IMG/VR virus record: IMGVR_UViG_3300002220_000288
Coordinates: 33,491 to 97,490 of that record
Reading direction: 5' to 3' (one strand)
From: a virus
Taxonomy: Duplodnaviria; Caudoviricetes
Length of the DNA stretch: 64,000 nucleotides
Both the position numbers and the translations under genes were made by a program. Below, piece by piece: positions 7,717-64,000 of this stretch (positions are counted from its first letter, which is position 1; the number at the start of each line of letters is the position of its first letter). The notes under the pieces were generated by a model that saw only the letters and a list, made by a program, of their open reading frames with translations, made no database searches and was not told the origin of the DNA.

Positions 7717-10700
7717 TTACACCGCAAGTTGCATATTGGTCCACGGGATGAACTGGTAGTAGCCTTGCCGCTGGTCTGCCGATAGGTTGATGTATTCCAG
7801 TCGAGAGGTGTCCCTGTACCATTTGAAAGGCTTTGATGGGTCTACAGCCTCTATTATAATACGGTGTTTCTTGCTCTTGTTTATTACGCTCCCGTTTTTA
7901 ACAGGCAAGTAAAACCGCTGCACTTCTCTTGCGGCATGAGGAGGCAGTGTCTTGGAGTAAAAAAGGACGTTATCTTCGTTGTAGAATTTAACAATGATAT
8001 CTCCGTCGCACTTGTAGTCCGCCCAGAACTGCTTTAGTACGGTATACCCGGCGCTGCCAAGACCTTGCTCGTAGCTGTCAAGAAACACGAATGGGCAAGA
8101 GTCCTTTACCGTGTTAAAGTTCGGCGCTCCAAACACTTGAGCTTTACCGCCTGCGCCTGGGTCAAAGGTCAAGCGGTACATTTTCCCGATTATCTCCGTG
8201 TTGTTTTGAGCGGTCAAAAACACTTGACGAGATTCGCTAGTTGTGTTGACCGTAAAGGTCTGTTTAGCCACGCCATCGACTTCAAGGGTAACAGTGCAAT
8301 TCACTCCCCCGGTGTCAATGGAAAGCCCTACGCCACGAAATATCTTATCGCAAGGATACTCAAGGTCGGTCCACTCGGAAAACTTCTGGATGTCTGGTGG
8401 GTAAGGGACGGTGTTTCCGAACCTGTATCCCCACATTTTGAAGTCTGGGTCAAGTCGATTAGACCTGCCCCCAGTAGAGAGCGCCCTGATTCTTACCATT
8501 TTGCAAATAGTCTCGTTTACAGGGAATGTCTTGTATCCACGACCAGTAGAGTTAAGCGTGAAAGTCTGAACTGCAAGATTTTCAGTATTTCCGTTAATGC
8601 CAGTGATCGTGTCAAGCGCTACAACTACGTCCTTGCCGTTAGTCTCAAACTCAATAGTTATCTCGCTGATCTTCTTGTCGTATGGGTGATCTAAGTTATC
8701 CCAGTCGAACGTATGGTAGACAGGGCCTTTGTCCGCTGGACGGAATACAGGCTTGTACTCCCAGAGCTGGAACCTTCCGCCAGAAGGAATCTGGTCTGGG
8801 TTTACTTGCAGCCTCATTGTTTGGAATGTGATCGCAGGGTTGAGAGTGCAGTTAAAGTTCCTATCTTGCTGCGTTCCCTCGACAACAACCCTTTGCTTCC
8901 AGACGCCATCACAATACACGTCAACAGGGATTTGATAGCCGTTGGTGTTAATATCGAATGTGATCTGCTCGGCATACTTCATGTAGTCGTAGCCAAAGTC
9001 AGTCCAAGGAGTAGAGAGGACAATTGGCTTCGGCAGATTCTCGAATTCAAACTTCTGGTCAAATAACTGGAACTTCCCGTTGGCGGGAATGCTGGTTACA
9101 TTAAGACGGACAAGTTTCGCTATGAGATCCTTCTTTAACGGGATCGGCTGCATCCTGTTGTTTGCGGTCCCGTTAATAGTGACTGTCTGAAGAACAGCAC
9201 CGTCACCCTCTACGTTCACCGTTACGTTTTGCCCATTAGTATCGCAGTTTACGTAGAGCTGATAGAATCTCTTTTCGTATTCATATCCAAGGTCAGACCA
9301 GTCGGTGAAGTTCACAATATCAGCAGGGTACTGAATGACATTGCTAAACTTGTACCCATACATCTTAAAAGATGCCGGAAGGACTGACGTGGTAGGTGAG
9401 CCGGAACCAATTGCTCGAATCCGAATCATCTTGCAGACGGTCTCAGGAATAGCAAACGTCTTGAACCCCCTAATGCCGCTGGTGTTCGGAAGTGTCAAGG
9501 TCTGGAACGCTAGGGTCTGAGTGGTTCCGTTTATTCCTGAAAGGGTGTCAAGGGCGATCTTTACATCGTCAGCCGCCCCCGTCTCGAATTCAATAGTTAC
9601 CTCAGTTAGCTTCTTGTCATACGGGTATTGGAGATCATCCCAGTCAAAGGTGTGGAATACTTCACCTTTGTCTGCCGGTCGGAATATAGGCCGGTAATCC
9701 CACAACTGGAACCTTCCGTTCGCAGGAACAGTTCCGACCTCTAATCGCATCGTTCGAAATGTCAACGCTGGATTTAGAGTTATGATCTGGTTGCGGTTTG
9801 CTTGAGTGCCTGTGACGTTGACGGTTTGCATTAAAACTCCGTCGCCATAGATGCTAACAGGTACTGATTGATTATTTGTGTTTACATCAAAACTGATCTG
9901 CTCTGCGTACTTCAGGTAGTCATATCCAAAATCATTCCAAGGGGTAGATAGAACGATTGGCTTAGGAAGGCTCTCGTAATCGAACTTGTAGTCAAAAAGT
10001 TGGAATTTCCCTCCAGCCGGAACGCTAACTACGTTCAACCTAATCAACTTGCTGATTATGTCCTTGTTGATCGGGATCGGCTGCATCCTGTTTGTAGCAG
10101 TGCCGTTGATCGTAACAGTCTGCAACACGGATCCATCGCCTTCGATATTAACGCTTACGTTCTGACCGTTGGTGTCACAATTGACGTACAACTGGTATAT
10201 GCGCTTCTCGTACTGGTAGCCTAAATCAGACCAATCGGTAAAGTTTACAATATCGGCAGGATACTGAACAACGTTGCTAATCTTGTATCCGTACATCTTA
10301 AACGAGGCTGGAAGGACCGAAGTGGTCGGAGATCCAGAGCCAATAGCTCGTATCCGAACCATCTTGCAAACTGTTTCATTTATCGGGAACGTCTTGAAGC
10401 CACGGACTCCCGAAGTGTTTGGCAGCGTAAGCGTTTGAAACGCCAGTGTCTGAGTAGCGCCATCCACTCCTGAGATAGTATCAATTGCAATCTTTACATC
10501 ATCAGAAGCCCCGGTCTCGAATTCGATGCTAATCTCTGTCAGCTTTTTATCGTAAGGGTATTGTAGATCATCCCAATCGAAAGTGTGATAGACCTCGCCT
10601 TTGTCGGCTGGCCGGAAGATCGGCCTATAATCCCAAAGCTGGAATCGACCACCAGCGGGGACAGTCCCGACCTCTAGCCGCATAGTGCGGAATGTCAGCG

Positions 10701-38468: not shown

Positions 38469-40385
38469 TCATATCCTTCTAGGGATGTAGATGGTCCTTG
38501 GATCATCTAAAACTTCAACCATTCTATCCTCTTCTTCTACGTATATCAACCTTGGGTCGTCAAGAACTTTAATCACGTTTCCTACTGGGTAGGAAAGAGC
38601 AAGATACGAGTCCGTGCTGTGTGAAGCGATAACGACAACCTTAAGCAAGGAGTCGGTCTGATGCGTTTTCTCGCTAGTCATCGAAAGCAGAGAATCCGTC
38701 GAATGGATCACGGACACTTGCTTTATCAGAAGAGAATCAGCCTGATGAACTCTCTCCTTGACTTCTTTAAGCAAAGAGTCGGTCAAGTGAGAGGCTTCTG
38801 CTTGCTTATACAGTAAAGAGTCAGTTGAATGAGATTTTACGACCTCTGCATAAGCCAGTGAGTCAGTGCTGTGGAGTCGGGATAGGGTTGCACGAACTAA
38901 CGAATCGGTAGTATGTGAGCGAGATTGCGTGACTCTTAGAAACGAATCGGTTAAATGAGCCGCTGTAGGAGTCTTGTACTTGAGAGAGTCAGTCTGGTGT
39001 GCTTTCTCTACAGCTAAATACAATAAACAGTCTGTAGTGTGCGACAGATCTTTCCTGAGAAGGATATAAGAGTCGGTCGAGTGCTGCTTTTCGGTAGATA
39101 GGTAGACCAGAGAGTCGGTCTGATACGATTTGTCAATAGACGCCCTAAGAAGAGAGTCTGTTAAATAATCTACCGATTGAACCTTCAGTAGTAGTGAATC
39201 CGTAGAGTGCTGCTTCTGGATCCTTGCATACAAAAAAGAATCAGATTGATGCGCCTTTTCAAATACCGCTTTAACTAGAGAATCAGTTACGTGACTTTCT
39301 AGTTGAGACTTTAACAGCAACGAGTCAGTCGAGTGGCTGACCGAGGCTACGCCAACCTGAATTAAGTAAGAGTCTGTTGAGTGAGTTGCTACCTGGCTTT
39401 TGAATAACAGGGAATCAGTAAGATGAGTCTCGAAGAACCTACTGATAGCCAAGGAGTCAGCGCTGTGAGCCTGTTCGGAAGTCCTATAAACTAAAGAGTC
39501 GGCAGAGTGGAAGAGATCTTCCGTGAGACTGACATAAGAATCAGTCTGGTGAGACTTTTCTACAGACGCGAAAAGAAAACTGTCTGTTAGATGATTCAAC
39601 GCGGAGGTCTTACTGAGTAGGCTATCTGTCGAGTGACTATTACTTATGCTGTAAACCAGATAGCTGTCAGTGAAAAAGACTTTTACGTAGCTCGCTGCAA
39701 CGATAGAGTCGGTAGAGTGTACTGGAGTAGTCCTATTAAGGAGGAAGCTGTCTGTTGAGTGATCCTTGCTGGCTACGAGAAGGAGATAGCTGTCGGTGGA
39801 AAACTGCTTAACTGCTGTCGCTTTAACAAAAGAGTCTGTTGAAAACTCCAGCACGGAACTCTTGAACAGAAGACTGTCTGTTGAATGAGATTCAGAAGAA
39901 GTCTTGTAGAGATAGCTGTCAACGGACTGAGAAACGGTCGAGGCTTTCCTGGCTAAAGAGTCTGTTGAATGCGATCTAGATAGCTCGGCCTTGAGGAGCG
40001 AGTTAGTTAAGTGCGATTTGGAGACCGTCGCTACTAACAGCGAGTCGGTTGAGTGGGACTTTGTAACTTGAACAGTAGAAACAGAAAGAAAAGAGTCTGA
40101 AGAGTGAACTACTGTTTCGGTATCCCTGAGAAGTGAATCAGTAGAGTGATTTCTAGATAAAGATGCCCTAAGTAGCGAATTAGTGTTGTGGGATAAAGTG
40201 GAGGTCTTTGATAGAAATGAACTCGTGCTGTGAGATCTATCGTAGGTAGCCCTAAGGAGGGAGTTGGTCGAATGAGACTTAGTTTCCTGTCCCTTGAGGA
40301 CAGAACTGGTTGTATGGGTCTTGGTAACCGTCGATGGTGCTGCGGTTCCGAACTGTACGATAATGCGATCCGAAAAAACGGCCAT
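38469..40385 (-). CDS. 14-aa tandem-repeat (HSTDSLL) fibre-like protein
   Basis: About 40 repeats of H-x-T-D-S-L/Y/F-L; C-terminal V..D.R repeats. Confidence 0.75.
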   Translation of the reverse strand: MAVFSDRIIVQFGTAAPSTVTKTHTTSSVLKGQETKSHSTNSLLRATYDRSHSTSSFLSKTSTLSHNTNSLLRASLSRNHSTDSLLRDTETVVHSSDSFLSVSTVQVTKSHSTDSLLVATVSKSHLTNSLLKAELSRSHSTDSLARKASTVSQSVDSYLYKTSSESHSTDSLLFKSSVLEFSTDSFVKATAVKQFSTDSYLLLVASKDHSTDSFLLNRTTPVHSTDSIVAASYVKVFFTDSYLVYSISNSHSTDSLLSKTSALNHLTDSFLFASVEKSHQTDSYVSLTEDLFHSADSLVYRTSEQAHSADSLAISRFFETHLTDSLLFKSQVATHSTDSYLIQVGVASVSHSTDSLLLKSQLESHVTDSLVKAVFEKAHQSDSFLYARIQKQHSTDSLLLKVQSVDYLTDSLLRASIDKSYQTDSLVYLSTEKQHSTDSYILLRKDLSHTTDCLLYLAVEKAHQTDSLKYKTPTAAHLTDSFLRVTQSRSHTTDSLVRATLSRLHSTDSLAYAEVVKSHSTDSLLYKQAEASHLTDSLLKEVKERVHQADSLLIKQVSVIHSTDSLLSMTSEKTHQTDSLLKVVVIASHSTDSYLALSYPVGNVIKVLDDPRLIYVEEEDRMVEVLDDPRTIYIPRRI

Positions 40386-40403
40386 TGTATTGACCCTCCA
40401 GTT

Positions 40404-42281
40404 TTATGCCGTTGTCACGTTGGCGTCGATAGTCGCCGAGCTTCCCGGCATCGTTAGAGCCGAGCTGCGTTGCCGATTCGCTCCGGTCACGCTGCTGCTG
40501 GCGATATCGGCAGGCGTGACGTTCGGGTTTGTTTGCAGTTTCACCGCCGAGCTTGCGCCGTCAGCGTTCGACTCGTGGAAGTAACTCACAGTGGACCCGG
40601 TCCAATCGGCGGGATCAAAAAGCGTGTCAAAGTCCTGAAGGCCGGTTGTGGTAATAGATTGATTGATCAACAGATATTGAGGCTCAAAATTAGATACTTC
40701 AGCGACTTGAATATCGTAAGCTGATAAAAGATCAAGGTCGGAGTCAACAAGAGCAATCCTAGATGAAGACATTGAAGAAATGTTATGTCCAAATGCTACT
40801 GGCGAAAGTGAAAGCCCGATTGATTCAACCCAACTAGACCCATTAAAGTCGTACACTCTAAGCCTTTCAAGAGTATCGTCTAAGAAGACAACCATTGAAG
40901 ATGACAACCCAGCAAGAGACGGTGATCCAGCTCCAGATACACTCAAAGAGCTACCTACTTGAGCCCATCTACTACTAGAGTAGTCGTAAGCCCTTAGTAG
41001 ATCATTTGTTGAGTCGATAGTTGCAATTCTAGTTGGCGACAAAGCCGCTATAGCCGGATCTCCTAAACTGGAAACATTTATGGATGAACCAGATGTTGTC
41101 CAGTTAGTTCCGTCAAAGCTATAGTTCCTCAAGATTCCGGTTGATGTTGCCCCGCTGTTAGCAAGAACCGCAATAATAGATGAATCCAGGTAAGCAATCG
41201 CTCCTCCTTGTGCCGAAACAGTAAGAGTATTGCCTGTTTTAGACCAATTAGTGCCGTCAAAATCGTAAACATTCAACAAAGATGAAGCGGCCCCGTTCCA
41301 AATAAAAACAGCAACTCTTGAGCTGGACATGGCGGTCATACTAAAACCTCTTCCAGAAGATACGCTTGAAACGAAAATACCATTACCTTGCTTTGACCAG
41401 TTAGTTCCATTAAAACTATAAGCTACCAAACTTTCAGTTGATGGAGAAGAAAGGTCTATGGCCGCAACCAAGGAAGATGTCATAGCAGCAACGCAGGACG
41501 AACGGGTTGTCGAAAACGAATTTCCAACCATAGCAATAGAAGACGATCCGCTTACCACGATCTTAGCAGCGTAAGTCACATGCCCACCGTTCATCGTGTC
41601 GGAGTCACGGGAGACGATTCGGTAGTTCCTATCATTTGTCGGCGCAAACGCCACTTTGTAATCGGTGGCCGTAGTGGTCGTAATCGAGCTTGCAATCGTA
41701 ACCTTATCAGCCCAGGAACCGAACGAACCGTTGTCCTCCTGTAGAACCCATGTCGAGTTAGACATCGTAGAAGTGTCGCGCTTGCCGACTACTTCAGCAA
41801 AAAACGAAAGCCCTGAACTCCATTTAGAAGAATCGTAATACCAATACTTCGGCGCTGTTAGTGGGATATTAGTAGTGCTGAGTTGTGTCTCTTGTCCGCC
41901 GATTTCAATCTGTGTTTCGGTAGCGTAGACAGGGCCTGATCCGGTATCTTGAAATACGATAATTCTGGCGGAGCGAATTTGTGGGCCAGTGCCGCCGCTG
42001 ATTGCCACACGGTATTCGGTCGCACCTTCTGGAGGAGTTAAAGTGGCGCGAGATCGAGTGTAAGCGGTAGCAGTCAGGCTTATAGTAGCGTCATTGGTAG
42101 TAGTTCCGTTCCTTTGACAGGTGACAGTCGCTGTGCCACTAGAAACCAGACCGACGATTTCAAATTGATACGTCACCGTGCCTGAATACTTTCCAGTGTC
42201 TAGCACAGCGAACCCTACGCTCGTCGCCGTGATCGTGGCGTTGAGAATGTTGATCTCCTGCCTGATCTTAGCCACTACCAA
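40404..42281 (-). CDS. Fibre/receptor-binding-like protein with an inserted beta-propeller
   Basis: Repeated Y(S/D)F(N/D)GTNW..G motifs about 45 aa apart. Confidence 0.65.
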   Translation of the reverse strand: MVVAKIRQEINILNATITATSVGFAVLDTGKYSGTVTYQFEIVGLVSSGTATVTCQRNGTTTNDATISLTATAYTRSRATLTPPEGATEYRVAISGGTGPQIRSARIIVFQDTGSGPVYATETQIEIGGQETQLSTTNIPLTAPKYWYYDSSKWSSGLSFFAEVVGKRDTSTMSNSTWVLQEDNGSFGSWADKVTIASSITTTTATDYKVAFAPTNDRNYRIVSRDSDTMNGGHVTYAAKIVVSGSSSIAMVGNSFSTTRSSCVAAMTSSLVAAIDLSSPSTESLVAYSFNGTNWSKQGNGIFVSSVSSGRGFSMTAMSSSRVAVFIWNGAASSLLNVYDFDGTNWSKTGNTLTVSAQGGAIAYLDSSIIAVLANSGATSTGILRNYSFDGTNWTTSGSSINVSSLGDPAIAALSPTRIATIDSTNDLLRAYDYSSSRWAQVGSSLSVSGAGSPSLAGLSSSMVVFLDDTLERLRVYDFNGSSWVESIGLSLSPVAFGHNISSMSSSRIALVDSDLDLLSAYDIQVAEVSNFEPQYLLINQSITTTGLQDFDTLFDPADWTGSTVSYFHESNADGASSAVKLQTNPNVTPADIASSSVTGANRQRSSALTMPGSSATIDANVTTA

Positions 42282-42696
42282 CCTCCTGAATCAGGCTTGC
42301 ATATTCTTCTCTAACCTTCACCTTCTCCTGATCTGTAAGTACTCGGTCAAAATGAAGCTCCACCTGATCGACTTCTCCGCCTGGAATGGATTGTGAATAG
42401 AAAATACGGTACGGGATACCTATAGCCTCAGCTATAGCCTCACGCTGGTTCCACACGTCTTTCACTAAAAACCGAGTAGGAGAAGATGGCGGGAATGTTG
42501 GCGAATTTTCAATCAATGCGTCAAGAGAAATCTTCTCACTTTCAGTCAACTGACGGTTGAACATTATGCAGGTATGCCACGTTTCGTCAACTTGGATATC
42601 GCTCGTCCCGGAAGGCGCGATGCCGACCTCCTGCTCGATCCTCTGGAGCATATTCCATCGGTAGCCGCCATTTACTTGCGGATACCTATACGTCAT
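42268..42696 (-). CDS. Hypothetical protein with internal duplication
   Basis: FNRQLTESEK / FDRVLTDQEK. Confidence 0.55.
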   Translation of the reverse strand: MTYRYPQVNGGYRWNMLQRIEQEVGIAPSGTSDIQVDETWHTCIMFNRQLTESEKISLDALIENSPTFPPSSPTRFLVKDVWNQREAIAEAIGIPYRIFYSQSIPGGEVDQVELHFDRVLTDQEKVKVREEYASLIQEVGSG

Positions 42697-43069
42697 TTTC
42701 AACCTCGCATGAAACCGGCACGACAGAATAAAACCACGGATGATCTTCTCTCCAAGCGCCAGCCATATGAACTTGCCCAGACTCAGTAACGTAGGCGATA
42801 GACTGAACGTTTACCCCGTTTACGGTCTTTTGCCAGCCTACCATGTACACAGCAAATGGGCTTTCGCCAGTTCGTTGCTCTACTCTCTTTCGGTAGATAA
42901 ACCTTTGGCCTTGATCCAGGTGAAGCTCGAACAAATGCCTGCCCTCATCTGAGTAAAGAGCAAATGATTCAAGCTTCGCCCTGTTGATATCTACGTACCT
43001 ATTCTCACTGCCGTCATCGTTGACCTGATGCAGTTCGGTTTTGTCGTTGTATCGAGCTAACCACTTCAT
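42686..43069 (-). CDS. Hypothetical protein
   Basis: MKWLARYND.., RFIYRKR, YMVGWQ. Confidence 0.6.
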   Translation of the reverse strand: MKWLARYNDKTELHQVNDDGSENRYVDINRAKLESFALYSDEGRHLFELHLDQGQRFIYRKRVEQRTGESPFAVYMVGWQKTVNGVNVQSIAYVTESGQVHMAGAWREDHPWFYSVVPVSCEVENDV

Positions 43070-43098
43070 GATAGATTCCTTTTGCTTTCTACTAATTC

Positions 43099-43641
43099 TC
43101 AAGTTTCGTCGTAGCGATAGCTGAATGTTTCCTGCCCGGTAGCGCCAGGGGAGGCCGTGGTGCCGATTTCAGTCTGATATACTACAAAGTTACCCAAGTC
43201 TCCGGTCGTGCTGGTAATGGTACCAGTCACAGAGAGCGGAGACGCACTTGTGTATGTAAAAGCGTCAACCGGAGTTCCAACGCCAGAGTAGTTTGCGTTG
43301 GTTAGCTGATTACCTGTAGTTCCAGCCGTTCCAGTTGCCTGAACGTAAGTGGAAGCACCAGCGCTTACTTTGCAAGTAACACCAGTCCCAAACGTATTGG
43401 ACCCATCAGTGAACCACTTGATATTGTTGATAGTTCCGCTTGGGGCAACATCCACACTCAGGCGAGTTGACACCCAGTACGAGTAGTTTGTTCCTGATGT
43501 AGGGATCTGAATCGGGTTGGTTGTACCTGCGGTAGAGTGAGCGTCTTCCGCGTTTGCGCGAGTGTTAATGCTGGTAATATCGGTTTTAGTAGGTGATCCA
43601 GAAGACCCCGTCCACCTCCGAATTGTTACTGTAGCTGGCAT
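43099..43641 (-). CDS. Virion structural protein (Thr/Gly-rich)
   Basis: NYSYWV..., ends FSYRYDET; GAGGA RBS. Confidence 0.65.
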   Translation of the reverse strand: MPATVTIRRWTGSSGSPTKTDITSINTRANAEDAHSTAGTTNPIQIPTSGTNYSYWVSTRLSVDVAPSGTINNIKWFTDGSNTFGTGVTCKVSAGASTYVQATGTAGTTGNQLTNANYSGVGTPVDAFTYTSASPLSVTGTITSTTGDLGNFVVYQTEIGTTASPGATGQETFSYRYDET

Positions 43642-43668
43642 GACTTGAAATCCTCTTTGTGTTTATTG

Positions 43669-43947
43669 TTACCTGTTCTGCACCGTCAACTGCAAACTTC
43701 GCCTGTCGATCTCTCCTAAGTTTGTCGTAATCTGGCAGGTGACAGTATAACTCGTCCCATCCACCCCGCCCGAGATGCGGCAAGTGGAAGTGTAACTAGT
43801 GTTAGACTCAGAAACTTTAGTAAGACCAGCCGGGACGGTCCAAGAAGTACTAGAGACTGTCTCATTCGCGCCGAGCCAATCCGTCCAATCAAACGAATAG
43901 TCTAGCGTAGCGCCTGGATCTTTAATGTAGACAAACTCTACCGGCAT
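43669..43947 (-). CDS. Fibre-attachment adaptor protein, probably leaderless
   Basis: KDP...DYSFDW..WL...ETV..S.W, SGG..G..Y.V...ITT..G...R pattern. Confidence 0.7.
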   Translation of the reverse strand: MPVEFVYIKDPGATLDYSFDWTDWLGANETVSSTSWTVPAGLTKVSESNTSYTSTCRISGGVDGTSYTVTCQITTNLGEIDRRSLQLTVQNR

Positions 43948-43954
43948 CAACTAA

Positions 43955-43984
43955 AGGTTATCAATACACTATAGGTAATATCAA
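43955..43984 (-). promoter_or_regulatory. Promoter TTGATA-N18-TAACCT (TGn-extended), 7 nt before ATG
   Basis: tatcaa 43979-43984, aggtta 43955-43960, ATG at 43947. Confidence 0.6.
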
Positions 43985-43987
43985 CAT

Positions 43988-44032
43988 AAATAAAAACGGG
44001 ACCGGCTAAAGGAGAAAAAGCCAGTCCCGTTT
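43988..44032 (-). terminator. Intrinsic terminator with anti-SD loop
   Basis: AAACGGGACTGGCT-N11-AGCCGGTCCCGTTT-TTATTT. Confidence 0.8.
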
Positions 44033-44055
44033 CGGCGCGTCGGCGACCTGTCTAT
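43988..44055 (-). ncRNA. Candidate anti-Shine-Dalgarno sRNA A
   Basis: TGCTATAAT promoter; 14-bp stem (one G-U pair on this strand) with an 11-nt loop UUUUCUCCUUU, then a U-tract; no ORF. Confidence 0.65.
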
Positions 44056-44061
44056 ACGTAC

Positions 44062-44070
44062 ATTATAGCA
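44062..44070 (-). promoter_or_regulatory. Extended -10 promoter TGCTATAAT
   Basis: Perfect TGnTATAAT in an intergenic region. Confidence 0.75.
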
Positions 44071-44075
44071 TCGGC

Positions 44076-44279
44076 TTACATCATGGTCAGTTTTTTCGAG
44101 GAAGGCTTGATAATTTTCCCCGGAAACTCCTCAAGGGCATTGATTTTAAGCAACTCTCCGACCTCAAGCGACAGCGAAAAGGGAGAAATCTTCAACTTCT
44201 TGGCGATTTCGTCGATTGAAATGCCATTTTCCGCGTTCTTATAGACCAGAGCTACTATTTTCTTCTGATGTTTATTCAT
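44076..44279 (-). CDS. Small winged-helix/HTH DNA-binding protein
   Basis: GISIDEIAKKLKISP..L...V..L. Confidence 0.6.
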   Translation of the reverse strand: MNKHQKKIVALVYKNAENGISIDEIAKKLKISPFSLSLEVGELLKINALEEFPGKIIKPSSKKLTMM

Positions 44280-44713: not shown

Positions 44714-44752
44714 AAAAAGCAAAACCCCCGGCAAAGGAGGAAAGCCGGGGGT
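44714..44752 (-). terminator. Intrinsic terminator with anti-SD loop
   Basis: ACCCCCGGC-N11-GCCGGGGGT-TTTGCTTTTT. Confidence 0.8.
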
Positions 44753-44784
44753 CAAGCCGAAAGGAGGTGATCGAAACAACCTAC
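44714..44784 (-). ncRNA. Candidate anti-Shine-Dalgarno sRNA B (16S 3'-end mimic)
   Basis: TGCTATATT promoter; contains GATCACCTCCTTTC and a terminator with loop UUUCCUCCUUU. Confidence 0.7.
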
Positions 44785-44790
44785 AACTCA

Positions 44791-44799
44791 AATATAGCA
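44791..44799 (-). promoter_or_regulatory. Extended -10 promoter TGCTATATT
   Basis: TGn + TATATT, 11 nt downstream of the upstream gene's stop. Confidence 0.6.
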
Positions 44800-46654: not shown

Positions 46655-46849
46655 TCATAGATTCCTAAATTGACCTTCTTTCTCCCAGGGAGGAAGAAGG
46701 TATTGGCTGTACGACTGCGCTTCTTTTCCGCGAGGAGATAATTCAATCTGGATGTACCATCCAAGCATCATTCGTATTAGCTCCCACCAATTCAAGCGAA
46801 CTACAATCATTCTTGACCATCCTTTCAGTGATTCTACTTCATAAATCAT
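46655..46849 (-). CDS. Hypothetical protein
   Basis: Likely start MIYEVES after the peptidase stop. Confidence 0.35.
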   Translation of the reverse strand: MIYEVESLKGWSRMIVVRLNWWELIRMMLGWYIQIELSPRGKEAQSYSQYLLPPWEKEGQFRNL

Positions 46850-49849: not shown

Positions 49850-50548
49850 CACCGAACCGAATATTGACAGATAAGGTTGATAATTAAGCCCGATGATTGA
49901 CAATCTTCTTAGGCAAGGTTGACAAGTGCGGTTTTGACCCCCGGCAGGCAATGGTACTAAGGAGAGGGAAGTACTATGGATACAGCTCGAAAATCTGAGT
50001 CAGTTACTGTCAGATTTTTGGCAATATATAGTACCGGGAAGGTCAAAGTACTACGAAATGGCCGGTTCTTTGGCCTAAAACATCCGCTACTCCATAAGCA
50101 GGGTTTATACAACAGCACATAACATATTCTATGCCCATGCCACATAAGTATCGTTTTGCTAGCTAGGGGGGATAGGGTTTGTATAAGTTTGGTTTATGTT
50201 GGGGGATTTTTTCTATAAAAAATTGAAAATATGGTTGTGGAGGCTGCCACCCCCATGCCCGTCCGTCCCTGGCTCACCCCCACCCGCTGCGCCTAAGCCG
50301 CTCGTTTATCGCTGCGCCGGTGTCAACTTCCGTTGTCTTGAGTCTCAGTCTGCGCCGGTTGTCGCTGCTGTCAACTTCCGTTGCCTGGCTTCCCCTGGAG
50401 TGCTGCCGTTTCCCTGGAAGGGCGGCTTCCCCGGCTTCCCCGGCTTCCCATGACGGGCTAATCTTCCCTTCCCCATACGTCGCGCATATACAAGAGATAG
50501 GCTAGGGGGGCATGAAGGATGTTTAATTGTTCTATGCCTAATTAGCTA
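49850..50548. other. Non-coding strand-switch region (candidate terminus, packaging site or origin)
   Basis: Genes diverge here; no credible ORF; short direct repeats and G/C runs. Confidence 0.55.
50287..50449 (+). repeat. Short direct repeats
   Basis: TGTCAACTTCCGTTG at 50321 and 50369; CTGCGCC x3; GGCTTCCC(C) in tandem x3 at 50424-50449, plus one at 50387. Confidence 0.7.
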
Positions 50549-51056: not shown

Positions 51057-51284
51057 ATGGAAGCAAAGAACATGGAACTACTGACACAAGCGGCCAACGA
51101 GGGTATCGCATGGGCAAGATCCCTGAAAATGGGTGATCTGTTTATCGGCGCAATGCCGGAGGCGGAAAAGCACGGATACGCAAAGGATACAAGTGCTTAC
51201 CGTGTCTTCGTTGCTACCGCTGCCGATTTCATGCCTGCCGCTATCACTGTAGACCGGGCTGGTAGGATCATCAAACTTGGATAA
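51057..51284 (+). CDS. Hypothetical early protein (paralog of 58947-59177)
   Basis: TAAAGGAG RBS; shared G..WA..L..GD.F.G..P.AE pattern. Confidence 0.65.
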   Translation: MEAKNMELLTQAANEGIAWARSLKMGDLFIGAMPEAEKHGYAKDTSAYRVFVATAADFMPAAITVDRAGRIIKLG

Positions 51285-53559: not shown

Positions 53560-53789
53560 GACGGCGCAACAGCCAATGGAACAAAGGAGGGAGGGTGCAC
53601 ACCCCTCCTCCTGGAGTGAACGCTAACACCCCGCCGCGTGTCCTAGAATCCCGCTACCCCGGCAAGTGTGTATCATGCAAGCGGACGTTTAACGCTGGTG
53701 AAACCATCGCCTATTTTGACCTAATCGGGAAAGCACTCTGCCCACTCTGCACCCGCGTATGGCAGGAGCTAGAAGAAGTAGAGGATTAA
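53556..53789 (+). CDS. Small zinc-finger protein
   Basis: SRYPGKCVSC...GE.I...CPLC. Confidence 0.6.
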   Translation: MRRRNSQWNKGGRVHTPPPGVNANTPPRVLESRYPGKCVSCKRTFNAGETIAYFDLIGKALCPLCTRVWQELEEVED

Positions 53790-55468: not shown

Positions 55469-55486
55469 GGTAAAGGAGAAAAGCGA

Positions 55487-55744
55487 ATGAATAACGAAGA
55501 ACGCGGCAGAGGTAGCGGGTATAGCGACGGCGACGGCTGCGGCTGGGGATACGGCGACGATATCACCGCTGGCGACGGCTACAGATCCGGCGACGGCTCC
55601 GGCAAAGGCTACGGCACGGCCTACGGCGACGGCGGAGGATGCGACAGCGGCACAGGACACGGCAGCGGCTGGAGCGACGGCTACGGCAAAAACAGAGGAT
55701 ACGGCAACGGCTGGGGCTTCAGCGATGGCGACGGGAAAAGCTAA
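55487..55744 (+). CDS. Gly-rich (GxG) microprotein 3, 85 aa
   Basis: TAAAGGAGAAAAG RBS; MNNEERGRGSGY... Confidence 0.7.
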   Translation: MNNEERGRGSGYSDGDGCGWGYGDDITAGDGYRSGDGSGKGYGTAYGDGGGCDSGTGHGSGWSDGYGKNRGYGNGWGFSDGDGKS

Positions 55745-55762
55745 TACAAAGGAGAAAAGCGA

Positions 55763-56416
55763 ATGTGTTTAATCATTGCATCTAAGACGGGCGAACTACC
55801 CAACAAAGACATTCTAACCCGCGCATGGGACGGGAACCCCCACGGATGGGGCCTCATGACGATGAAGGAGGACCAGCTAACAATCACCAAGGGACTAGCC
55901 AAAGACTCGCTAGAGAAGACCATCAAACAGCAGATAGTCCCCGGCACTCCCTACGTTCTTCATTACCGATGGGCGACTCACGGGCCGAAGACGCGGGATA
56001 ACTGCCACCCGTTTGAAGTAACGCCGTATCTCTACATGGCGCATAACGGAGTCATTAGCGGAATCGACATAACCGATGAGTCCCGATCCGACTCCTACCA
56101 CTTTGCGGCCAAATTAGCGGAGATCGGTCTAGATGAGGACACGCTACAGGAAAAGGAGGTACAGGACTGCATCGCCGATTGGGTAGGCTGGGGAAACAAG
56201 CTTGTCTTTATGGACTCCCAAGGCCGCATAACCATCATTAACGAGGATATGGGCGAGACCGTGGGCAATATCTGGTACAGCAACAACCTTGCCATTGACG
56301 AAGCGGCCTATTGGCGCGAAGAAGCGGCCTACCTCCAGCGACAGCTAGACTGGGTAACGAACGAGTATCAAACATTCCGCGCTATCGACACAGCGATCAG
56401 CGGCGGCGGCAATTAA
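55763..56416 (+). CDS. Class II (Ntn) glutamine amidotransferase 1
   Basis: N-terminal Cys (MCLII), NPHGWG, HYRWATHG, NCHPF, AHNG, SDS. Confidence 0.88.
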   Translation: MCLIIASKTGELPNKDILTRAWDGNPHGWGLMTMKEDQLTITKGLAKDSLEKTIKQQIVPGTPYVLHYRWATHGPKTRDNCHPFEVTPYLYMAHNGVISGIDITDESRSDSYHFAAKLAEIGLDEDTLQEKEVQDCIADWVGWGNKLVFMDSQGRITIINEDMGETVGNIWYSNNLAIDEAAYWREEAAYLQRQLDWVTNEYQTFRAIDTAISGGGN

Positions 56417-60620: not shown

Positions 60621-60632
60621 AGGAGAAAAGAA

Positions 60633-63194: not shown

Positions 63195-63230
63195 TGTCTT
63201 GTCGCTGTTGCGGCAAAAGGAGAAAACAGA

Positions 63231-64000
63231 ATGTCTTTGAAATTCCAGAGTACCGTCAAGCCTGAGCGCGGCACCGAGTACCTTGTCGATATCGACGATA
63301 TCGCCGTCGATCACGAATCCAACAATCGCTTCAGCCAGTCCGATATCGGCATCCTGGTTCAGTCTATCAGCCAGTACGGGCAGCTTGAGGCCGTTGGCGC
63401 GGTGCGCGAAAAGCCCAACAACACCCTTCGTCTAGCCTACGGGTTTGGCCGCTATGAAGCGATTAAGCGGATCAACGCTGGCGTACAGGAAGACCAGCGC
63501 ATGAAGATTAAGGTTGTCGTGTTTGACGGCAACGAGCGCGACGTGTTCTTTCGCAACTTGGCCGAGAACGCCCACCGGAACAGCCTCTCCCACATGGACT
63601 ATGCCCTCTCTATCCGGCGCATGAGCGAGAACTACGGCCAGACAGACTCTCAGATCGCCAGCTTCTTCGGACGCACGGGTGGATGGGTTAGCCAGCACCG
63701 GAGCCTCCTGAGCCTCGATTACAACATCCAACAGAAGGTCCATAACGGCGAGATCAACTTTACCGATGCCCTCTCTATCGCCAAGATGAGCACGGACAAG
63801 CAGAAGGTTGCGGCCAAGGAGATTGCGTCTGTTGTCACGGCCCCGGCACCCGCTGAGTTCGACAACAACGAAGACGACAACACCGATACCGTCATCGTCG
63901 CCAAGAGCGAAGGAGATCAGCCGGAAGAATCCACTCCGGCCAAGAAGAAGCGTGCCGTCAAAGAGATCATCCGCAAGCTATCCGACACGCCCAAGAACAA
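63231..64000 (+). CDS. ParB/Spo0J-family protein (truncated by the window end; not in the ORF track)
   Basis: SISQYGQLEAV, L.YGFGRYEA, NLAENAHRNSL, HTH TDSQIASFFGRTGGWVSQ; AAAGGAGAAAA RBS. Confidence 0.85.
   Translation, partial: MSLKFQSTVKPERGTEYLVDIDDIAVDHESNNRFSQSDIGILVQSISQYGQLEAVGAVREKPNNTLRLAYGFGRYEAIKRINAGVQEDQRMKIKVVVFDGNERDVFFRNLAENAHRNSLSHMDYALSIRRMSENYGQTDSQIASFFGRTGGWVSQHRSLLSLDYNIQQKVHNGEINFTDALSIAKMSTDKQKVAAKEIASVVTAPAPAEFDNNEDDNTDTVIVAKSEGDQPEESTPAKKKRAVKEIIRKLSDTPKN

Follow-up and report, generated by a model that had tools for sequence, protein, structure and literature searches.

The minus strand of this virus very probably carries a clade-conserved small-RNA gene, which we call unit A. 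Its predicted transcript, sRNA A, exposes a CU-rich seed complementary to SD sequences, and the relatives have kept this seed independently of the hairpin that surrounds it here.

The window, the stretch of 64,000 nucleotides that we analyzed, makes up the final 64 kb of a virus record 97.5 kb long. From ~49.8 kb downwards, the minus strand encodes virion proteins, among them terminase, portal and major head protein. The plus strand, from ~50.5 kb and running on into the start of the record, carries small genes and amidoligase/GATase, ParB-like, Erf, helicase, primase and ribonucleotide reductase genes. We refer to these as the late arm (minus) and the early arm (plus); the labels rest on strand and gene content, and the gene calls were made in this analysis. 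Where the two arms diverge, window positions 50150-50500 are non-coding, partly GC-rich and contain short repeats; this region may be the junction of the genome ends. Elsewhere, at genome positions 9572-9700 (L087:9572-9700), inverted and direct repeats of AACCCTCCT / AGGAGGGTT followed by a TATATA run lie inside a 469-aa ORF, beside primase and helicase genes, and possibly mark a replication origin. On the early arm, window positions 53580-53612 form a hairpin that buries a AAAGGAGGGAGG stretch on the plus strand and resembles a terminator on the minus strand. The cultured phages searched yielded no DNA or protein relative of the unit A locus, and their matches were limited to ~25% capsid similarity. 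Scans of genome_contigs for a host gave no match, and the matches in the atlas and plasmid collections were uninformative.

Anatomy and conservation of unit A

The features of unit A and its immediate neighbors are as follows.

44090-44062, minus strand: sigma70-type promoter of sRNA A, CTGACC-17-TGcTATAAT
44085-44090, minus strand: -35 hexamer CTGACC, within the last codons of the wHTH gene
44062-44070, minus strand: extended -10, TGc-TATAAT (TGCTATAAT), 17 nt from the -35
43988-44055, minus strand: predicted sRNA A, ~66 nt, with its start deduced from the -10
44034-44048, minus strand: small 5' hairpin of sRNA A, present in this lineage only
43994-44032, minus strand: intrinsic-terminator stem-loop of 14-15 bp (arms 43994-44007 and 44019-44032)
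44008-44018, minus strand: 11-nt open loop UUUUCUCCUUU, the anti-SD seed, with a predicted unpaired probability of 1.0
43988-43996, minus strand: terminator U-tract
44076-44279, minus strand: wHTH-like gene of 67 aa (weak HTH hits below cut-off), always directly upstream of unit A
43947-43984, minus strand: promoter TTGATA-18-TAACCT-7-ATG of the downstream Gp77-like gene, with its leaderless ATG; outside the sRNA

The first-pass annotation had proposed a minus-strand RNA whose promoter and terminator enclose no ORF. Both parts of this proposal hold. No ORF of at least 50 aa lies between the -10 (44070-44062, minus) and the terminator, the ~66-nt body contains no SD-led start codon, and TGnTATAAT occurs a single time in the 97.5-kb genome, in this promoter. 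As for orientation, the stem's wobble is a U-G pair on the minus strand versus a C-A mismatch on the plus strand, the hairpin folds at -23.7 kcal/mol on minus versus -19.3 on plus, and the U-tract is on the minus strand. The predicted fold of the whole RNA, comprising the small 5' hairpin and the terminator, has a z of -4.7. At the sequence level, unit A thus has the features of the anti-SD sRNA class: a promoter, an intrinsic terminator, no ORF and an unpaired CU-rich motif.

A search of the window against Rfam returned no family match for unit A at the gathering score. The best weak match was COG2827 RNA (24 bits against a cut-off of 49), and the LhrC, RsaE, RepG, cuckoo, 6C, csRNA and C4 models did not match in the window. 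The exact hairpin was not found in viral_contigs, and the variants listed for DNA contigs aligned to the locus include no change in the loop.

We fetched contigs of relatives through the neighboring proteins. Unit A lies between the wHTH gene and the next gene in every fetched contig that covers the interval, giving 11 distinct sequences. All share one layout: a -35 near the wHTH stop, 17 nt, TAnnnT, a body of 62-73 nt and a terminator. Among the 12 orthologous loci listed, TTGACN occupies the -35 place in 9, the -10 reads TG-n-TAnnnT in 11, and TAnnnT is present in all 12. Promoters, flanks and stems diverge among the orthologs. CUCCUU is invariant (11/11 distinct sequences), with U at each of the two positions before it in 10 of 11 and U as the next base in 10 of 11; the family core of the seed is UUCUCCUUU. 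At the distant loci reached through the 180-aa gene (44) or through Gp77 (69), no unit A was found outside clade members.

The position of the seed depends on the lineage. It is the terminator loop in the window, in L047/L048 and in G001 (L045), the nearest relative. In L050, L052, L089/G002, L091, L093, L177, L179, L183 and L184 it is found near the predicted 5' end, at a distance of 7-12 nt; a GUUGG-like stretch and then an unrelated terminator come after it. The seed's predicted unpaired probability is 0.52-0.90 in these 5'-arm relatives and 0.52-1.0 across all. The terminator-loop seed of the first-pass annotation is accordingly a trait of this lineage and not of the family, since most relatives retain just the 8-9-nt core of the seed and carry it outside the loop. 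Because the seed sits in the loop or in the 5' arm by lineage, the motif has been kept independently of the hairpin. This independence is the strongest evidence that the CU-rich motif is a functional element, as the data suggest. The conserved, unpaired seed also supports the earlier proposal of a stand-alone minus-strand sRNA with an exposed anti-SD seed. The stem itself says less: the G001 stem has one compensatory change from G-C to A-U and one change from U-G to U-A, which are not significant alone.

The neighboring genes differ in how closely they accompany unit A. The wHTH protein belongs to a clade-restricted family (3 clusters at 50% identity; identity to relatives from 93% down to 34%) and is a possible regulator of unit A. 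Downstream, the promoter and leaderless layout of the Gp77-like gene is the same in L050, L089, L177 and L184; the next operon thus has a start of its own. Unit A is kept in G001 even though the downstream gene block is replaced there. This block, from Gp77 to a 638-aa gene (window 38469-43950), is absent in G001, where a ferritin-like gene directly follows the sRNA terminator, and it is a variable module in other relatives too.

Seed and ribosome-binding sites

Three early-arm sites match the complement of the loop over its whole length.

55472-55482, plus strand: candidate target RBS of the 85-aa gene at 55487
55748-55758, plus strand: candidate target RBS of the GATase-like gene at 55763; duplicates the 55472 site over 18 nt
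63216-63226, plus strand: candidate target RBS of the ParB-like gene at 63231

These matches, pointed out in the first-pass annotation, are real: AAAGGAGAAAA has 4 copies in the whole genome, all on the plus strand, at the loop and at 55472, 55748 and 63216. The reported 9-nt matches also exist, at 51283, 51453 and 58635 (first 9 nt) and at 60621 (last 9 nt). Of the gene names, ParB is reached via its ortholog and GATase is weak (GATase_6, E=1.2e-5, below the Pfam cut-off).

We then asked how special the 11-nt match is. The count of AAAGGAGAAAA is well above dinucleotide shuffles (0.04 expected), a null that ignores the SD-richness of RBSs, and falls within what RBS composition allows. The first seven bases of the loop complement are a plain SD that pairs with the canonical bacterial 16S tail, which may not be the host's tail; only the last four bases, AAAA, are specific. 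Among the 17 AAAGGAG RBSs, column shuffling leads one to expect 1.2 with AAAA next, and P(>=3) = 0.07. Moreover, 55472-55489 and 55748-55765 are an identical 18-nt RBS-to-ATG block before two adjacent, unrelated early genes, so that these two sites are probably one event. The 4-mer that most often follows AAAGGAG in a set of 146 unrelated phage loci is likewise AAAA (5/53; Fisher P = 0.39 versus 3/17), and AAAGGAGAAAA ranks first among the RBSs of unrelated phages too. RBS composition, the shared duplicate block and this commonness elsewhere mean that a private 11-nt address is not established, and the description of the complement as "not a generic SD" was overstated. Nor does the match behave as a private signature of three early genes: in G001 the loop is altered to UUUCCUCCUUU and the ParB RBS is still AAAGGAGAAAA.

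A shorter match is more informative. Relative to the canonical 16S complement AAAGGAGGU, the complement of the seed, AAAGGAGAA, is shifted towards AAGGAG-AA, which is the most frequent RBS form on the early arm; in this respect the first-pass annotation is supported. Leaving out the loop itself, the genome has 8 copies of the AAAGGAGAA 9-mer; every one is an RBS, and 7 belong to the early arm. The 16S-type AAAGGAGGT is found at 1 RBS. In three genomes AA follows AAGGAG at 9/26, 10/22 and 5/17 RBSs, versus 1, 0 and 1 for the 16S-type GT. Compared with unrelated phages (22/142), AA is in excess for 9/26 (P=0.03) and 10/22 (P=0.003), and not in G001. When the 256 possible extensions of the seed were ranked by their fit to a genome's own RBSs, the window's AAAA came joint first, the AACT of G002 third and the extension of G001 75th. 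The ParB RBS likewise matches the seed extension in the window and in G002 and is mismatched in G001. In G002 the seed is lengthened to GUUCUCCUUU; in the early RBSs of this genome, the ParB one among them, AGGAG is most often followed by AAC. Against shuffles, the 5' flank of the G002 seed gave P = 0.045 (early) and 0.01 (late) in its own genome versus 0.15 and 0.30 in other genomes. The conserved GUUGG flank, located on the 3' side of the seed in relatives, might pair with a CCAAC motif further upstream; this idea was rejected, since pairing with upstream RBS regions does not exceed that of shuffles (P=0.48). A TAAC spacer motif is rare. The evidence for tuning of the seed to RBSs is mixed.

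Calculated duplex energies of the loop are -12.5 to -12.8 kcal/mol at the three 11-nt sites and -10.9 at the 9-nt sites, versus about -8.9 for the canonical 16S tail; these energies are for free strands with loop topology left out, and the tail may not be the host's. The arms themselves differ in SD strength. SDs of -8 kcal/mol or stronger precede 58 vs 13%, 42 vs 16% and 51 vs 7% of the early-strand versus sRNA-strand genes in three genomes, and the stronger early-strand SDs are significant in the window's genome (P = 9e-8), in G002 (7e-5) and in G001 (1e-9). One gene caller was used for both strands alike, and the three genomes are relatives and not independent tests. Leaderless-like starts make up 16% of late versus 1-2% of early genes in the three genomes; examples of leaderless-looking virion-arm genes on the window's minus strand are 43947, 44688, 27810, 17826, 3212 and 49836, with TAnnnT 6-7 nt before the ATG. 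Pairing with loop A at -9 kcal/mol or stronger is predicted for 23/57 early versus 8/70 late starts (P=3e-4). The best predicted target in G002 is a gene on the sRNA's own strand, and in the window, too, there is such a site, at 46655. When duplexes were scanned across the whole G002 genome without anchoring, RBSs did not come to the top and G-U-rich noise dominated. On sequence grounds, a repressor of SDs as a broad class accounts for these data better than a regulator of three genes.

A sibling unit lies upstream on the same strand.

44714-44799, minus strand: unit B, with TGcTATATT, anti-SD ACCUCCUUUC in the body and terminator loop UUUCCUCCUUU

Unit B has the promoter type of unit A and two anti-SD stretches. 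It is kept in G001, L050 and L052, with ACCUCCUUUCGG or CCCUCCUUUCGG retained; only its C-rich loop is found in G002 and L184, and it was not found in L177. The 14 nt that it shares with the canonical 16S 3' end are found in this lineage only. A scan with the unit-B pattern gave 29 matches, among which G001 was the one recognized as a relative. Unit A is predicted to pair best with AAGGAG-A sites and unit B with AAGGAG-G sites, so that together they would cover both RBS forms. In L179:4255-4275 (unit A) and in L045:9335-9352 and L050:9530-9548 (unit B), the RNA sequence exactly complements an SD, spacer and AUG, with CAU just 5' of the anti-SD, as if directed at one start region. No phage gene matching these complements was seen in the phage DNA examined.

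Proposed action and alternatives

With a probability of roughly 0.55, unit A is an LhrC/RepG-like anti-SD sRNA that would broadly damp SD-led translation, favoring late over early. A host sigma70-type polymerase would read a trans-acting sRNA of ~65 nt from the promoter where the wHTH gene ends and would stop at the RNA's own terminator. The unpaired CU-rich seed would pair in vivo with AAGGAG-AA SD regions more strongly than the canonical 16S tail does, and this pairing would block 30S loading. Early-arm translation would be damped as a class, with its targets presumably under selection, and the weak-SD or leaderless virion-arm mRNAs would continue; host mRNAs with an AAGGAG-AA RBS would probably be damped too. 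With strong AAGGAG RBSs on the early arm and a weak-SD or leaderless virion arm, the net effect would favor late translation. A near-consensus promoter should fire once DNA is available, so that any delay must come from accumulation, from the order of DNA entry or from the wHTH protein.

It is also conceivable, if rather unlikely, that an anti-SD sRNA was selected on host mRNAs, be it a defense or regulatory gene or a general shut-off, and that its fit to phage RBSs follows incidentally from a strong-RBS consensus that both share. Unrelated phages, too, often use AAGGAG-AA and AAAGGAGAAAA as RBSs, the loop of G001 fails to follow that genome's own ParB RBS, and the GUUGG flank has no demonstrable phage partner. 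The complements of a whole SD-spacer-AUG in L179 (A) and L045/L050 (B), unmatched in the phage DNA examined, point the same way. The clade-wide preference for AA after AAGGAG (G001 excepted) and some genome-specific tuning in G002 argue for the phage's own mRNAs as targets, and these early mRNAs could hardly evade such a seed in any case. We regard as improbable that unit A is an attenuated leader of the virion operon in the style of lambda pR'-6S-tR', its short RNA being a by-product until antitermination. A promoter and strong terminator directly upstream of a long same-strand virion operon, beside a small wHTH gene, would suit such a leader. However, the next gene has its own conserved promoter and a leaderless start just past the U-tract, a layout on which we rejected the pR'/tR' type at the sequence level. 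In addition, G001 keeps the unit although its downstream block has been replaced, the orthologs show no conserved antiterminator pairing, and a leader leaves unexplained why CUCCUU is invariant at two different positions.

No more probable is a role of the motif as a protein-binding site, either an RNA decoy for an RNA-binding protein or nuclease or a DNA operator for the wHTH protein. The motif is short, invariant and adjacent to a conserved DNA-binding-like gene, and the opposite strand would show GGA in a loop, the type of site seen in Csr/Rsm systems. Yet the motif is non-palindromic, shifts by ~35 nt relative to the promoter between lineages and lies outside loops in most relatives, and promoter, U-tract and wobble all indicate the CU-rich strand. 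A protein-binding role has also been raised for LhrC (PMC4132741). Slightly less probable still, the hairpin would simply terminate the three-gene operon upstream, its pyrimidine loop being a coincidence, or the RNA would be antisense to a very small ORF on the plus strand, as in type I toxin-antitoxin systems. The hairpin would indeed also end transcripts from 44688-44076, and on the opposite strand of L179 the SD-like copy is followed, 5 nt on, by an ATG. Against this, a promoter between stop codon and terminator is conserved in all orthologs, and the other conserved intergenic terminators of the clade genomes have no CUCCU loop. A type I antisense was rejected since 10 of the 11 distinct sequences, the window's included, have no start codon after the opposite-strand SD.

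Relation to known systems

The mechanism class, CU-rich anti-SD sRNAs, is already well known in bacteria. Unit A is proposed to work like LhrC1-5 of Listeria monocytogenes, RNAIII, RsaE, SprD and FsrA, all CU-rich sRNAs (PMC4132741). These RNAs are host-encoded and stress-regulated and carry UCCC motifs, three per RNA in LhrC (PMC4132741); unit A, in contrast, is phage-encoded and has one UUCUCCUUU seed and no Rfam match. In RepG of Helicobacter pylori the terminator loop is the pairing site and targets a G-repeat in one leader (PMC8295292). The likeness to RepG, a seed in the terminator loop, holds for the window's lineage only; the seed of unit A is SD-shaped and lies outside the terminator loop in most relatives. 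The cuckoo RNAs of Alphaproteobacteria, with 2-4 hairpins each bearing CCUCCUCCC (PMC4615179), also combine a conserved anti-SD-like loop motif with variable stems. We rejected identity with them because unit A has one seed per RNA and a different motif.

Among phage systems, the C4 RNA of P1 and P7 is a three-stem, RNase P-processed RNA that is specific for ant mRNA and maintains lysogeny (PMC12197685, PMC5320573). Like unit A as proposed, it is phage-encoded and uses loops to act in trans on its own phage's mRNA at the RBS region; unit A differs in being a predicted primary transcript of ~65 nt with a class-wide SD seed, and it does not match the C4 Rfam model. RegB of T4, an endoribonuclease that needs S1, cuts early mRNAs at GGAG that is followed by an A-rich stretch (PMC1702504). 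The proposed outcome, inactivation of early mRNA, is the same, which makes RegB a functional analogue only: RegB is a protein, and unit A would be an RNA that masks the site. The phage antisense RNAs that we found described have one or a few targets each (PMC12197685), and the literature searched, whose coverage is incomplete, described no sRNA of a phage for which masking of a whole class of that phage's RBSs had been demonstrated.

More tentatively, one or two RNAs of ~65 nt may be an RNA-only counterpart of T4 RegB, their seed tuned to early RBSs and serving as an early-to-late translational switch. Such a switch would silence an entire temporal class of the phage's mRNAs, along with SD-led mRNAs of the host, and would spare the weak-SD and leaderless mRNAs of the virion arm. 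If this is true, a 65-nt RNA together with the split into strong-SD early and weak-SD or leaderless late genes would make a simple timing device. The family would also offer a natural case of a seed that shifted from the 5' arm into the terminator loop.
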